Source: Leucoraja erinacea
Taxonomy: Eukaryota
Reading direction: 5' to 3'
Assembly: GCF_028641065.1 (NCBI RefSeq)
Contig: NC_073387.1
Location: 39,556,001 to 39,620,000, forward strand
Length of the DNA: 64,000 bases
The notes under the pieces were generated by a model, which was not told the DNA's origin, made no database searches, and was given only the letters and a program-made list of their open reading frames with translations. The number at the start of each line of letters is the position of its first letter. The first letter of the stretch is position 1. The position numbers and the translations under genes were made by a program. Positions 8,866-53,805 of this stretch are shown one piece after another.

Positions 8866-11135
8866 AGAGTAGGCCTGATGGGCTGAATGGCCTAATTCTG
8901 CTGTTATGTCTTGTGGTCTATTATGGGATAGTAGCCCAGTCACAACACAAAAACGTGTTACAATGAATAAATATGGCTTATCCCACTGTTAGTGTGTGAA
9001 CATATCCAGCAGAGAACTTTGGAATGATAATTGAATGGCAGAGCAGACTCAATGGGCAGAATGCATTATTCTGCTCCAATGACTTATGGTCTTTAGATAT
9101 GAAGATAATGTATGCTATGCCTCAGGTGAGAATGCTTGGCTTGGACACATATATAAGGGGAATAGTCACCGCACTCCCAATAAACTAAGGAAAGGAATAT
9201 ACTCAAGTAAATTGCAGAATGAAACAGAAATGTACATATACAATTAAGGAATTGTACAGGTACACAGAGTTTCTACTAATTTTAGTTTGGAGGAAAAAAG
9301 CATTTTGGCCCATTGAGTTTATATTGAACAATGATCAGCTGTTCACACTAGTTCTATGTTATCACACTTTCTCATCCACTCAAGACACTAGGGACAATTA
9401 AGCTATAAACCCAAACATCTTTGGAATGTGGTAGAAAACCAGTGCATTTGGAGAAAACCAATGCGGTCATAGGCATCTGGAGTAAGGATCACAATATAAC
9501 AATGCTTGTGGATAATGAAAATGTATCTTCACTAACAATTGACAATAGGTGTAGGAGTAAGCCATTCGGCCCTTTGTGCCAACACCACCATTCAATGTGA
9601 TCATGACTGATCATCCCCAATCAGTACCCCGTTCCTGCCTTCTCCCCATATCCCTTGACGCTGCTATCTTTAAGAGACCTATCTAGCTCTCCTTTGAAAG
9701 TATCCAGCGAACCGGCCTCCACTGCCCTGTGAGGCAGAGAATTCCACAGACTCACAACTCTCTGTGTGAAAAAGTGTTTCCTCATCTCCGTTCTTAATGG
9801 CTTGCCCCTTATTCTTAAACTGTGGCCCCTTGTTCGGGACTCCCCCAACATTGGGAACATGATTCCTGCCTCTAGCATGTCTAAACCCTTAATAATCTTA
9901 CATGTTTCAATAAGATCCACTCTCATCCTTCTAAACTCCAGAGTATGCATGCCCCACTGCTCCATTCTCTCAGCATATGACAGTCCCGCATTTCCGGGAT
10001 TTAACCTTGTAAACCTCTGCTGCACTCTCTCAATAGCAAGAATGTCCTGCCTCAAATTAGGGGACCAAAACTGCACACAATACTGCAGGTGTGGTCTCAC
10101 TAGGGCCCTGTACAACTGCAGAAGGACCTCTTTGCTCCTATACTCAACTCCTCCTGTTATGAAGGCCATCATGTCATTCACTTTCTTCACTGCCTGCTGT
10201 ACCTGCATTCTTACTTTCATTGACTGATGAACAAGGATCCCCAGATCCCATTGCACTTCCCCTTTTCGCAACTTGATAACATTTAGATAATAATCTGCCT
10301 TCCTGTTTTTGCTACCAAAGTGGATAACCTCACATTTATTCACATTAAACTGCATCTGCGATGCATCAGCCCACTCACCCAACCTGTCCAAGTCACCCTG
10401 TATTCTCATAGCATCTTACACACAGTTTACACTGCCACCCACTTTTGTGTCATCTGCAAATTTGCTAATGTTACTTTGAATCCCTTCATCTAACTCATTG
10501 ATGAATATTGTAAATAGTTGTAGTCACAGCACCGAGCCTCATGGTACCCCATTAGTCACTGCCTGCCATTCTGAAAGGGGCTCGTTAATACCTACTCTTT
10601 GTCTCCTGTCTGCCAACCAATGTTCTATCCATGTCAGCACTCTACCCCCATACCATGTGCCCTACATTTGCCCACTAATCTCCTATGTTCGACCTTATCA
10701 AATGCTTTTTGAAAATCTAAGTACACTACATCCACTGGCTCTTGCTTGTCCATTTTCCTAGTTACATCCTCAAAAAACTCCAGGAGATTAGTTAAGCATG
10801 ATTTCCCCTTCATAAATCCATGCTGACTCAGACCGATCCTGTTACTGCTATCCAAATGTGCCACTATTTCATCTTTTATGATTGACTCCAGCATCTTCCT
10901 CACCATCGATGTCAGGCTAACTGGTCTATAATTCCCTGTTTTCTCTCTCCCATCTTTCTTAAAAAGTGGGATAACATTAGCTACCCTCCAATCCTGAATC
11001 TATAGAACATTAGAAAATGATCACCAATGCATCCACGATTTCTAGAGCCACTTCCTTAAGTATGCAGACCATCAGGACCTGGGGTTTTATCAGCCTTCAG
11101 TCTCATCAGTCTACCCAACACCATTTCCTGCCTAA

Positions 11136-12521
11136 TAGCTGAGTCTCACGTTGTGAGTTGACACAAGAGGTACCCCGAGTTAAAACTCATGATAATAACG
11201 TACGATTAACGTACGGAACACGTGGACGCAACTTAGAGACTCATGGCGCTAACGGCAGGTACCCGTGAAACTTGTCAACTCTTGACAAAAATCAAACATG
11301 TTTAAAGTTCTCCACGAGTCAAATTTCCTCTTGTGGTTAAGAATTGAAACATTTTAACTGGGAGTCAGCGGGCACGCCGGCTCTTGACTATTTTCTGCAT
11401 TTCATTGTAAAATGTTCCTGTTATTAAAAAATAGTAATGTCTATCCTGTCATGAGAATGTGTGAGCCTGCAGTCCTTCACCTCCACCCCCCTCCCCTCAG
11501 TCCAACACCGAGATCCTGCTTAAGATGGGCAGCTGCCGACTGGATGAAGTGGCAGCGGGTACCGTAGGGGCAGAAGCTGATGGTGTGCAAGGTACGTCTT
11601 GTTCTTGGGGTGGCGGATGAGGGGGCACAGCTCGGGCTGTGGGCAAACTGCCACTTGTCGCCGTAGCGGCCCATCGGGGAGCGGGTTCCTCTGTAGTTGG
11701 AGCGGGGCTGGGCTGGAGTTGCTGTTGTCTGTGGGTCACTGGGTTCTCCGTGCTTGCAGTGGGCCTGGTGGGCCTGGGGGTCGGTGTCCAGTTGGTACTG
11801 ATGTCGCCGTGCTGTTTGATCGTCCCCTGCTATCCCAGGGACAGGGAGACACAGCGGCTTTTGAGACTGGTGGGTAATCACTTTCAAAGTGTTTGCCCAC
11901 ACAGTCAGTACACCTCTCCTATACTTGTCTCCCGCACTAAGATCATCCCGCAGAGAATGATCCAAGCCTCTCTCGACCTCAACTCACGCCTGGACACCCA
12001 AGCAGCTCAGGAGGCGAACCCTGAGCTCTGTCTCACAACAATCTGATGTGCACATCCGTCCACATTCAAAGATTTAATCTCCCGTCTCCCCGCAATGTGT
12101 TGACATGGCAGTAAATTCAATTAAAACATATCAAACCTGTGTGTTTCAAACAAATCATAAGTATAACTGCTCTGGCACTGGATGGTGCACATTTTCCCTT
12201 TGTAGGTCACATCAATAGATGCGGCCGCGCTGAATTCTATCTTTAAAACAAAGCCACAGGATGGAGAGGTCTTCTTTAACACTGTTGCTTATTAAAACAT
12301 AACACTGTTGCTTATTAAAACAAACCTTCAATGAGGATTGGCTCAAGAATAACTCGGGAGACGAACTTGGAACATCGCAGAAATGACAAGTAAACGGCAA
12401 ACTTGTCATACCCGTGGGAACTCGGTTAAACTCTTGATCATACACTTGTAATCTCGTACACTGCCACAAGTCTTTCACTCGGGGTACCTCTTGTGTCAAC
12501 TCGCAACGTGAGACTCAGCTT
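11136..12521. mobile_element. Non-autonomous PIF/Harbinger-type DNA element with captured gene fragment (Pack-TIR)
   Basis: 44-bp TIRs at 11137-11180 and 12477-12520 (1 mismatch); TAA TSD at 11133-35 and 12522-24. Confidence 0.88.
11540..11668 (-). pseudogene. ZFP36: Degenerate ZFP36/TIS11-family tandem CCCH zinc-finger fragment inside the transposon (family-level call)
   Basis: RYGDKWQFAH / ELCPLIRHPKNKT / RTLHTISFCPYGTRCHFIQ across frameshifts, versus the family motif [46 protein letters not shown]. Confidence 0.85.
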
Positions 12522-14679
12522 TAATGTGGATTTCCTTCAGATCCTCTAGCCACTAGTACATCAGGAAGATTGTTTGTGCCCTCCTTAGTGAAGTCGGATC
12601 CAAAGTACCTGTTCAATTCCTCTGCCATTTCATTGTTCCCAATAATAAATTCATCTTTTTCAGTCTTCAAGGTTCCAACTTTGGTCTTAACTATTTTTTT
12701 CCTCCTCACATACCTAAAGAAGCTTTTACTATCCTCCTTTATATTCTTGGCTAGCTTACCTTTGTACCTCATCTTTTACCCCCCTATTGCATTTTTAGTT
12801 ATCTTCTGTTGCTCTTTAAACATTACCCAATCCTCTTGCTACCCGCTCATCTTTGCTAAGTTGTCCTTCTCTTTTATTTTTATACTGTCCCTGACTTCCC
12901 TTGTCAGCCACGGTCGCCCCTTACTCCCCTTGAAATCTTTCCTCCTCTTCGGAATGAAGAGTAACATACACAAATCAACTGTAAATTATTGCAATTACAT
13001 TATAATCGTGAGGCAAAAGTTTAGAAATATCTAGTGCCTTCAGCAAGTAAATATCAGGAAACATCAGAGAACAAACTAAAAAAGAAATCTAACTTGTTAT
13101 TATGTGTGCACATTTACAGAATCCTATCAAAGAACAGAGGAACATACAACATACAATGATGATACAAATTATTGATAATTTCACATTCCTCAGGGCATAA
13201 TAACTGCTGAAAGTCATAGATTGGGGAGGAAGGGAAAAAGAAAGAGTCATTTCAATTTGTGCAAGATTGTAAAACCAAACATTATTAGATTTAATGGAAA
13301 AGATCTGTCTCAAGAATAATGCAATAGGTGTGCTATTTACCGTCCAGTTCAGACCAAATCCATCTGAAATAATGTAATAATTTGAACAATAAGTATCAGG
13401 AGATTCTAATTTTTTTTAAATCAGCTTTTATTTATCCAGACATATTTTCAGTGAAATATTATTATGGGAGCTTTTAAAAGCAGTCAGTGCATTTAAGAAT
13501 AGTAAATAGATTTGTGGTATAATCAACAGTAAGATGGAGGAGAAAGAACAAATCCAAATGTATGCTGTAATATTGGAGAGCAGATTTGTTTTGCAAATTG
13601 AATTACAGAGTCAATATTCTGTTCCCACAGCTGCAGTGGAAGATATTATGACAAAATAAGGGATAACAGTCTTTTATAACAGTATACTTAATAGGATTTT
13701 GATACTGCTTAAGGTAAATAAAATGATTTAAAGAATATTAGCAAATATCTCCAATATAGGAAAATGTTCAAATGTGCTTTCCTAAAACAGAAATCTGATT
13801 TTTTGAACATTAAAAAGCATCTTACTTCTTGGTTCCATATTGATTCAAAGCTATGGATTGGCATTTCAAATTATGTAAGAAAGTATAGCTAAAGCAGTAT
13901 CTTTCTTTTCTTCAAAGAATAGCTGGGTTCCAGCCTTGTTTTACACAAAGAAATAGTATGAGGTAGCTCTAATCCTTCTCTACTTTGGAATATTATGGCT
14001 CATCTATCCCAATGCCGTATTCCACGATTTCTTTAGCATTCAATAATATATTGCTCAAATCTTTACAGGCTTCAAAGACGTATCTCCCAATTTTATTCTT
14101 AAAAAATAAAACACTTAATATAAAGCCATAATGTCTAATATAATGGGACCATTTATGGGAAAAAGTTTCTCAATACCTTTCTTATCACTTCCATAAGGGA
14201 TGTATCTATGTCAGTGAGATTATAACTCATTCTTCTAAAATCTATTGATAAGAAAAACACACAGTATCTCCCCATAAAACAGCCTTCTCATCAGTTATGT
14301 AAGCCTCTCTGGCACCTTCTCCAAAGCAAAACTCTTGAGTTAAGAAGACCCACACTACATACATGTCAATTCCTTTTGGAACTTCTCGTCTCATGAAGCA
14401 GTACTTGAAAGACCTGAATAATGTTACAGCATGGCCAGGTGAATGATATTTAAGCAGCACAATGGAAAATCTTCAATAAGTGAGCCCAAGCATCTCCTCT
14501 TGGGACATGTTGTTGCATGTGCTACTTGAAACTGTTTCTTCATTTGCCTGTGGTTGAAATAAATAATGGGTACCAATTTAAAATTCATGTTATAATAGTC
14601 AACCAAAATGTATCAGTAAGAACCCCAAACTCACAGCCTACACCATCCAGAAGAACAAGAACAAAAGCTTTAACAAATA

Positions 14680-53486: not shown

Positions 53487-53805
53487 AAACCCTGTCCCAC
53501 TGTACGAGTTCATTCAAGAGTTCTCCCGAGTTTTGCCCTGATTCGAACTCGGAGATTTACGGTAATGGCTGCACGTAGGTACTCGGGGCTCTCGTGGACA
53601 TTTTTCAACATGTTGAAAAATTCTCACGAGTCTTCCCGGGCTTACTGCGTTTCTCGAGTACCTGCCGTTAGCGTTACGAGCCGCTAAGAGACATCCCCAA
53701 GCTCTGACGTACCCGCTATGTTCATTCTTCGTGCTTACCACGAGTTTAATTTGTTTTTAAACTTGGGAGAGCATTTGAATGAACTCGTACAGCGGGACAG
53801 GGCTA
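53487..53805. mobile_element. PIF/Harbinger-type MITE
   Basis: TIR CCCTGTCCCACTGTACGAGTTCATTCAA; TTA TSD at 53484-86 and 53806-08. Confidence 0.88.

Follow-up and report, generated by a model that had tools for sequence, protein, structure and literature searches.

A 64-kb window of the Leucoraja erinacea genome, by which we mean the whole 64,000-nt stretch analyzed here, contains a 1386-bp non-autonomous element with terminal inverted repeats (TIRs; 11136-12521, no strand assigned) that is inserted in a CR1 copy and carries a piece of ZFP36, a gene of mRNA decay. Our favored reading, to which we assign a probability of about 0.7, is that this is a cut-and-paste element, likely of the PIF/Harbinger superfamily, whose cargo is a dead fragment of a tristetraprolin-type ZFP36 gene, and that it likely belongs to a multicopy family mobilized in trans by a related transposase. 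Matching pieces recur in related genomes, likely those of skates. The element is a genuine representative of a known kind, the Pack-type TIR element (Pack-TIR), in which transposon ends enclose sequence of a host gene whose parent copy is not itself associated with a transposon. Here, the intact donor gene (P0261) resides on a 12.4-Mb L. erinacea contig, separate from the element. It is the scale and the cargo that are unusual.

The TIR arms of 48 nt at 11137-11184 (plus strand) and 12473-12520 (minus strand) are complementary at 46/48 positions (blastn against the 64-kb window, E 1.6e-16), and the first 44 pairs counted from 11137 agree at 43, exactly as the first-pass annotation had described for a 1386-bp element. 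Both arms begin with AG and are separated from the target site duplication (TSD) by a single unpaired base (11136 T and 12521 T), which is T at the left end and A when read from the right end. The TSD is TAA on both sides (11133-11135 and 12522-12524, plus strand), again as originally proposed. A 4-bp TSD of TAAT would yield an identical empty site, but three related elements in the window favor 3 bp plus an unpaired base, and the longer version was rejected. The host CR1 is oriented on the minus strand, with its downstream ORF2 part and 3' end at 9538-11132 (left limit approximate; RVT_1 at 10637-10999, Pfam E 1.1e-13) and its upstream ORF2 part at 12525-12950 (right limit approximate). When the element and one TAA are deleted in silico, a continuous CR1 ORF2 frame results, LKEIHIRQEMVLGRL, and the corresponding empty-site joint (11132 to 12522, 1389 positions skipped) was present in 4/4 sequencing runs compared, namely in 3, 3, and 4 contigs and in 32 RNA reads from 22 starts. 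These joints derive from other CR1 copies rather than from this locus, and together with the restored frame they bear out the clean split of a CR1. The observed/expected CpG ratio is 1.0-1.2 at the element ends versus 0.25-0.28 in the surrounding CR1, which is in line with an insertion later than that of the CR1. Within the element, the inner right segment (11951-12335, no strand assigned) has a lower depth in other copies and matched no Pfam family in 12 frames, and a perfect 23-bp tandem duplication is found at 12277-12322. Rfam returned 0 matches. Elsewhere in the window, a ~1.13-kb fold-back composed of two CR1 3' ends with arms 89% identical occupies 30979-32107, while 26400-26540 holds a telomere-like run of AACCCT and, after it, a 22-bp unit that is based on this run.

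Harbinger membership is likely, judging from the sequence of the TSD and termini; Pfam detected neither a transposase nor a Myb remnant in 12 frames of the element, and a Myb/MADF remnant seen by eye at 11905-12073 had no Pfam match and was rejected as unsupported. According to excerpts of the relevant papers, PIF/Harbinger is defined by its 3-bp TWA TSD (PMC4482050), given as TAA/TTA in PMC2836001 and as 3 bp for canonical Harbingers in PMC12730594, and the first-pass use of the TWA signature as a mark of this superfamily was well founded. The same sources describe PIF/Harbinger TIRs as mostly <60 bp with a first base that is usually A or G (PMC4482050), and fish Harbingers as having 25-50-bp TIRs and 3-bp TSDs (PMC9179366). 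The window also contains three TIR elements without cargo (33128-33943, 34347-34572, and 53487-53805), whose duplications are TTA and whose termini are related; all three have the same layout of TWA, unpaired base, and similar 13-mer. The left terminal and subterminal region of the element (11136-11319, plus strand) is homologous over ~190 bp to the last of these, a cargo-free MITE, with a local score of 85 compared to 22 +/- 2.9 (maximum 31) in 200 shuffles. Repbase classification tolerates no more than 1 mismatch between the first 11 bases of an element and those of a classified one (PMC4455052, in the portion available), and 4/11 terminal bases differ here from those of the MITE, which is itself unclassified. 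A TWA TSD followed by a variable first base was found in 4/4 related window elements. This recurrence argues against a Pack-type element of some other group with 3-bp TSDs (Academ, Chapaev3, or the Pangu/Nuwa branches of PHIS), an assignment for which the missing transposase leaves room but which we regard as improbable. Academ termini read TAG..CTA, and the element likewise begins with TAG. Its arms also begin with AG as in Pangu, and Chapaev3 similarly creates TWA TSDs; however, the CAC that starts Chapaev3 TIRs (PMC3014272, excerpt) is not present in the element, and a TAA duplication at a C-TAA-T site fits neither the ANT of Pangu nor the C-TNA-G target of NuwaII (PMC4482050, excerpt).

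The cargo itself consists of two separate modules of a ZFP36 protein, both on the minus strand. A tandem CCCH remnant at 11540-11668 comprises the second half of finger 1, the linker, and finger 2 (32/41 residues identical), and it reads in order as RYGDKWQFAH (11668-11639), a 4-nt deletion, ELCPLIRHPKNK (11633-11598), an 11-nt deletion, and RTLHTISFCPYGTRCHFIQ (11596-11540), with these three peptides distributed over two frames. It is directly followed by RQLPILSRISVLD-stop (11538-11497), a remnant of the CNOT1-binding C-terminal motif that is 10/13 identical to the skate paralogue (z 14, 25 shuffles) and that the first-pass annotation had missed. This motif corresponds to the NOT1-binding peptide of mouse TTP, RLPIFNRISVSE (PMC8180021, excerpt), and against back-translated profiles it scored 37.7 bits with the skate paralogue, 35.6 with sawfish, and 21.2 with L1, compared to a null of about 15 +/- 2 from 25 shuffles. 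Relative to the intact skate protein P0261, the cargo equals residues 121-168 plus 287-299 (42/54 identical), with ~118 codons deleted between the finger part and the C-terminal motif. Among solved structures, the best match was 1rgo, the tandem finger of ZFP36L2 (E 2.6e-8), the ESM Atlas returned CCCH clusters only, and Pfam zf-CCCH gave E 0.002, which falls below the family cut-off. The proposed match to the tandem CCCH domain of the ZFP36 family is therefore confirmed by significant hits. As for its extent, the three frame-shifted finger peptides that had been reported are indeed present, but the ZFP36-derived part covers 11497-11668 rather than ~11476-11870, with perhaps ~20 nt of 3' UTR beyond it. 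When residues 100-155 were compared with longer proteins (7 candidates), no match emerged.

Both conserved modules of the tristetraprolin/ZFP36 family, the TZF and the NOT1-binding domain at the C-terminus (PMC8180021, excerpt; PDB 1rgo), are thus recognizable in the cargo, but its fingers are damaged and its sequence is dispersed over three frames. Finger 1 is truncated and its last Cys has become Trp, finger 2 is missing its first Cys, and Cys ligands are consequently lost. In a functional ZFP36, a single frame encodes both C-x8-C-x5-C-x3-H fingers intact, which is not so in the cargo. It is a pseudogene fragment that cannot encode a working finger, and this copy is dead DNA. The finger remnant is fused to a segment at 11669-11950 (minus strand) that is partly shared with a second L. 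erinacea locus, P0107, and has a high depth in related genomes. This segment is GC-rich, and 11670-11950 is not assignable to ZFP36. When 11690-11950 was compared with the inverted donor gene, one donor protein gave z 4.2 and another 1.4, in a low-complexity sequence with BLAST E values of at least 0.17.

Several lines of sequence evidence support a tristetraprolin-type ZFP36 paralogue, the third paralogue of skates, as the probable donor rather than L1 or L2. Of 8 sites at which this paralogue and chondrichthyan ZFP36L1 differ, the cargo agrees with the paralogue at 6, with L1 at 1, and with neither at 1. Among 258 proteins, identity was highest with skate proteins (42/55), while the BLOSUM sum placed seahorse ZFP36L1b on top (228 versus 225). 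In a tree of 33 chosen proteins, seven donor-type proteins of sharks, rays, and skates form one clade with P0107 (92/100), apart from L1 and L2; a second damaged model, P0023, falls outside this clade on a long branch. The donor clade is weakly joined (67/98) to sturgeon, lungfish, and newt proteins presumed to be TTP in this tree, which was built without mammalian TTP. The donor also shares an RISV ending with mouse TTP (PMC8180021, excerpt) and is likely the tristetraprolin orthologue. This single chondrichthyan paralogue (P0099, P0100, P0101, P0103, P0104, P0118, P0260, and P0261) is currently found under four RefSeq names: L1-like, L2-like, L2-A-like, and ZFP36-like.

Two further L. erinacea loci carry what are likely copies of the same cargo. 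These are damaged RefSeq models, P0107 (XP_055505784.1, on a 139.7-Mb contig) and P0023 (XP_055493223.1, on an 88.0-Mb contig), named 'ZFP36L3-like' and 'ZFP36-like', respectively. Both are without the first half of finger 1, as in the cargo, and both have the derived 5' junction of the cargo, in that P0023 starts at the MG-RY junction and P0107 runs through it. They also have in common KYKSE in place of KYKTE (T>S). P0107 shares the non-ZFP36 upstream sequence with 11669-11950, scoring 94 against 41.6 +/- 6.5 with 0/300 shuffles as high, compared to four intact paralogues for which 10 to 286 of 300 shuffles were as high. Decay is milder than in the cargo (88% and 91% over the finger), with P0023 identical to the skate protein at 49/56 positions of the finger. 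By eye, P0023 also appears to retain some out-of-frame sequence from the gene's middle, and the captured piece would accordingly have been longer than the remnant seen here. From these sequences, XP_055505784.1 and XP_055493223.1 are likely transposon-borne cargo copies. P0107 has an internal repeat, and in each of the two models an open frame still encodes a single intact CCCH finger. The unnamed Logan proteins P0263 and P0239, of which one has the cargo junction at its start and then reads as the intact gene and the other is a 92-aa mini protein with an in-frame jump from finger 2 to the C-terminus, look like assembly chimeras of cargo and parent and were left out of the main argument.

These shared features bear on the age of the capture. 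Among the 7 named donor-type proteins, only those of skates contain the tripeptide YGT, and the cargo copies keep the ancestral GLAELR, whereas the Leucoraja and Amblyraja donor has GLSELR; these two markers, one site each, would probably bracket the capture in the skate stem. A competing reading is a private event, in which this copy alone received a retrocopy or gap-fill once it had inserted. Gap-fills present in a single copy make up the majority of animal Pack-TIRs (PMC8277862, in the portion available), and no second cargo copy exists within the 64-kb window; however, the junction and lesions are common to P0107, P0023, and other contigs, and cargo depth is high in three organisms. The first-pass annotation had named an own poly(A) or TSD of the cargo as the signature of a later retrocopy, and neither was found: the longest T run around the cargo is 4, and its two sides share no direct repeat of at least 8 nt and no 8-mer. 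The junction shared with P0107, P0023, and other contigs effectively refutes a private event, and we consider it exceedingly unlikely.

To examine the abundance of the element, we compared it with sequencing runs, of which 20/24 listed (9 studies) contain 0.19-0.43 of its words and represent four organism codes plus one without a code. Four of the 24 runs were compared at 80% likeness, including three contig runs guessed to be DNA and one polyA RNA run of which about 6% was read. In the contig runs, all 30 bins of the element had depth in three organisms, and mean summed depth relative to the CR1 flank, which is not equivalent to copy number, was 0.04-0.06 for the ends, 0.14-0.59 for the cargo core, 0.08-0.24 for the upstream segment, 0.012-0.015 for the inner right part, and <0.001 for the linker at 11401-11455. 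The cargo is therefore 2-11 times as deep as the ends, while the left linker has only 1-2% of end depth, with figures of 234-885 at 11401-11455 against 11-75 for most long pieces. As an indication of orders of magnitude, this suggests that the exact left linker exists in some tens of copies at most and that the ends and cargo exist in many more. Among the 24 listed of 32,816 pieces, divergence from this copy was 12% at the left, 14% in the cargo, and 10% at the right, and the pieces tile 11967-12514 but leave gaps at 11360-11468 and 11769-11966. One piece (11469-11602, 2 gap letters) spans the deletion between finger and C-terminus and continues through the stop, and in two pieces the sole length difference from this copy is 4 nt, so that they have the 11-nt deletion in common with it but lack the 4-nt deletion. 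None of these listed pieces joined a TIR to cargo at another locus; both cargo and ends are multicopy, with a second complete copy and its TSD not among the pieces read. Exact DNA scans of metagenome contigs for the cargo junction and the TIR, and of viral contigs for the TIR, gave 0 matches.

Since the 11-nt and the large deletions are shared by pieces of other copies, these lesions preceded part of the amplification. The idea that near-perfect TIRs around a decayed cargo indicate early capture holds in its conclusion, but the shared lesions are better evidence for it than the TIR contrast, which is weak alone: the copies differ by ~10-14% throughout, and at this divergence 2 mismatches in 48 have a probability of 0.06-0.13. 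The accompanying proposal of a multicopy family spreading ZFP36-like sequence likewise stands in that cargo and ends are multicopy with shared lesions, but the cargo exceeds the ends in contig depth, so an intact family may not explain all of it. An unlikely though more serious competitor is a ZFP36-derived repeat that amplified on its own, in tandem or inverted arrays or within another transposon, and only secondarily came to sit in a small Harbinger subfamily. Such a repeat would suit the depth of the cargo core (3.7-10.9x that of the ends) and upstream segment (2.1-4.4x), the sharp depth steps near 11565 and 11950, the rarity of the left linker, the internal repeat of P0107, and the rearranged joints in other copies. 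These joints include a back-jump from 11789 to 11617, skips, and an inversion joint between 11563 and 11685 that is present in 3/3 contig runs (X1/X3/X8) and fuses the finger segment in opposite orientation to the upstream segment. Nevertheless, many short overlapping contigs can inflate summed depth, the cargo has no inner TSD or poly(A), and the listed pieces extend from the finger through the stop to 11469 and tile the right part of the element. In addition, the polyA RNA covers cargo and ends about equally (1.05 and 0.64 of the ends), with about 14-23 cargo reads that run in both directions. This fits dispersed one-to-one copies that are passively read through, and the cargo excess in the contig runs may reflect untranscribed arrays or an artefact from summing short contigs. 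There was no sign of dedicated transcription of the cargo in this run, as its ratio to CR1 was 0.05-0.085 in RNA versus 0.08-0.155 in the DNA-type runs. An abundant loose-end mRNA in run X22 was rejected as a cargo transcript, as it reads like ZFP36L2 and not the donor.

The most likely origin would thus be a single DNA-level capture, followed by trans-mobilization and internal rearrangement. An ancestral element would have acquired the gene's 3' portion, beginning in the middle of finger 1 and ending shortly beyond the stop, with template switching while DNA was repaired or replicated as the probable route; this portion would also have been fused to the unrelated GC-rich segment. In mammals, ZFP36 has a single intron near its 5' end, in the part that is absent from the cargo. 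As the captured part is expected to be without an intron, RNA-templated capture may also serve. The DNA-level route would resemble FoSTeST, the template-switching mechanism proposed for multicopy Pack-TIRs (PMC8277862, in the portion available). After this one capture, probably in the skate stem lineage, the loaded element would have multiplied, with inner parts lost, inverted, or tandemly repeated in subfamilies, and a late, heavily deleted copy would have entered the CR1 here.

Comparison with known systems places the element among the animal Pack-TIRs of Tan 2021, which are likewise non-autonomous, with host sequence inside TIRs and a GC-rich cargo. In the portion available (PMC8277862), these number 370, with 21 rows assigned to PIF-Harbinger (frogs, alligator), none of which is multicopy. 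Multicopy status is limited there to four families (ids 25, 341/344/354, 358, 359), two of which are illustrated with three and five transposition events; a five-copy frog Pack-TIR shows secondary deletions and duplications as in the skate element. The elephant shark has 0 Pack-TIRs in that work, and 'skate' and 'ZFP36' are absent from the 12 supplements searched. Hence, the view that Pack-type capture is little described in vertebrates must be narrowed to high-copy cases, as Pack-Harbingers themselves are known. The skate cargo differs from this set in being coding sequence of a regulator and in appearing far more abundant. Plant Pack-PIF elements (Gisby and Catoni 2022, PMC8903248, excerpt) similarly combine PIF/Harbinger ends with captured gene pieces and Pack with non-Pack members side by side, and maize clusters exceed 100 copies. 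The host here is a vertebrate, however, and the cargo seems to outnumber the element ends. Helitrons are rolling-circle elements without TIRs or TSDs. Among them, the Helibat elements of vespertilionid bats are also vertebrate DNA transposons that amplify host gene fragments, 12,382 copies in all (PMC4224331, excerpt), but by this different, rolling-circle mechanism. A hAT element of Pseudocercospora that captured histone H3 (PMC6710886, excerpt) parallels the skate case in its single capture, hundreds of dead copies, related host species, and TIR structure, but it is fungal, RIP-inactivated, and a complete transposon. Within the literature searched, which did not extend to subscription papers or Repbase, neither this element nor a ZFP36 capture turned up, and Repbase or Dfam may hold the family unrecognized.

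What is new is the scale, as Pack-TIRs in vertebrates are already known. Animal Pack-TIRs have been thought to be almost all single-copy, with multicopy ones reaching a handful (as represented in the literature available), and a TIR family with hundreds or thousands of copies of a conserved regulatory gene fragment across a vertebrate lineage would, if true, extend to vertebrates what is known from plants. The cargo itself would merely ride along; as zinc ligands and frame are lost in this copy, any influence would have to come from homology to the donor gene at the level of RNA or chromatin. In its boldest form, which we offer only tentatively, a tristetraprolin piece would have been captured once by a Harbinger in the skate ancestor and would now be a common skate repeat with thousands of copies, which transposition dispersed at first and tandem and inverted amplification multiplied later, and which is present in RNA from both strands, such that the donor, an immune gene of mRNA decay, would be exposed to transposon-silencing small RNAs directed against its own coding sequence. 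Transposon-borne cargo would explain the spurious 'ZFP36-like' and 'ZFP36L3-like' gene models of skates, and the cargo family would serve as a lineage marker. If the family is as abundant as it appears, skates versus rays and sharks would offer a clean test, through donor small RNAs and methylation, of the capture-silencing conflict that has been proposed for maize (10.1101/777037, excerpt).
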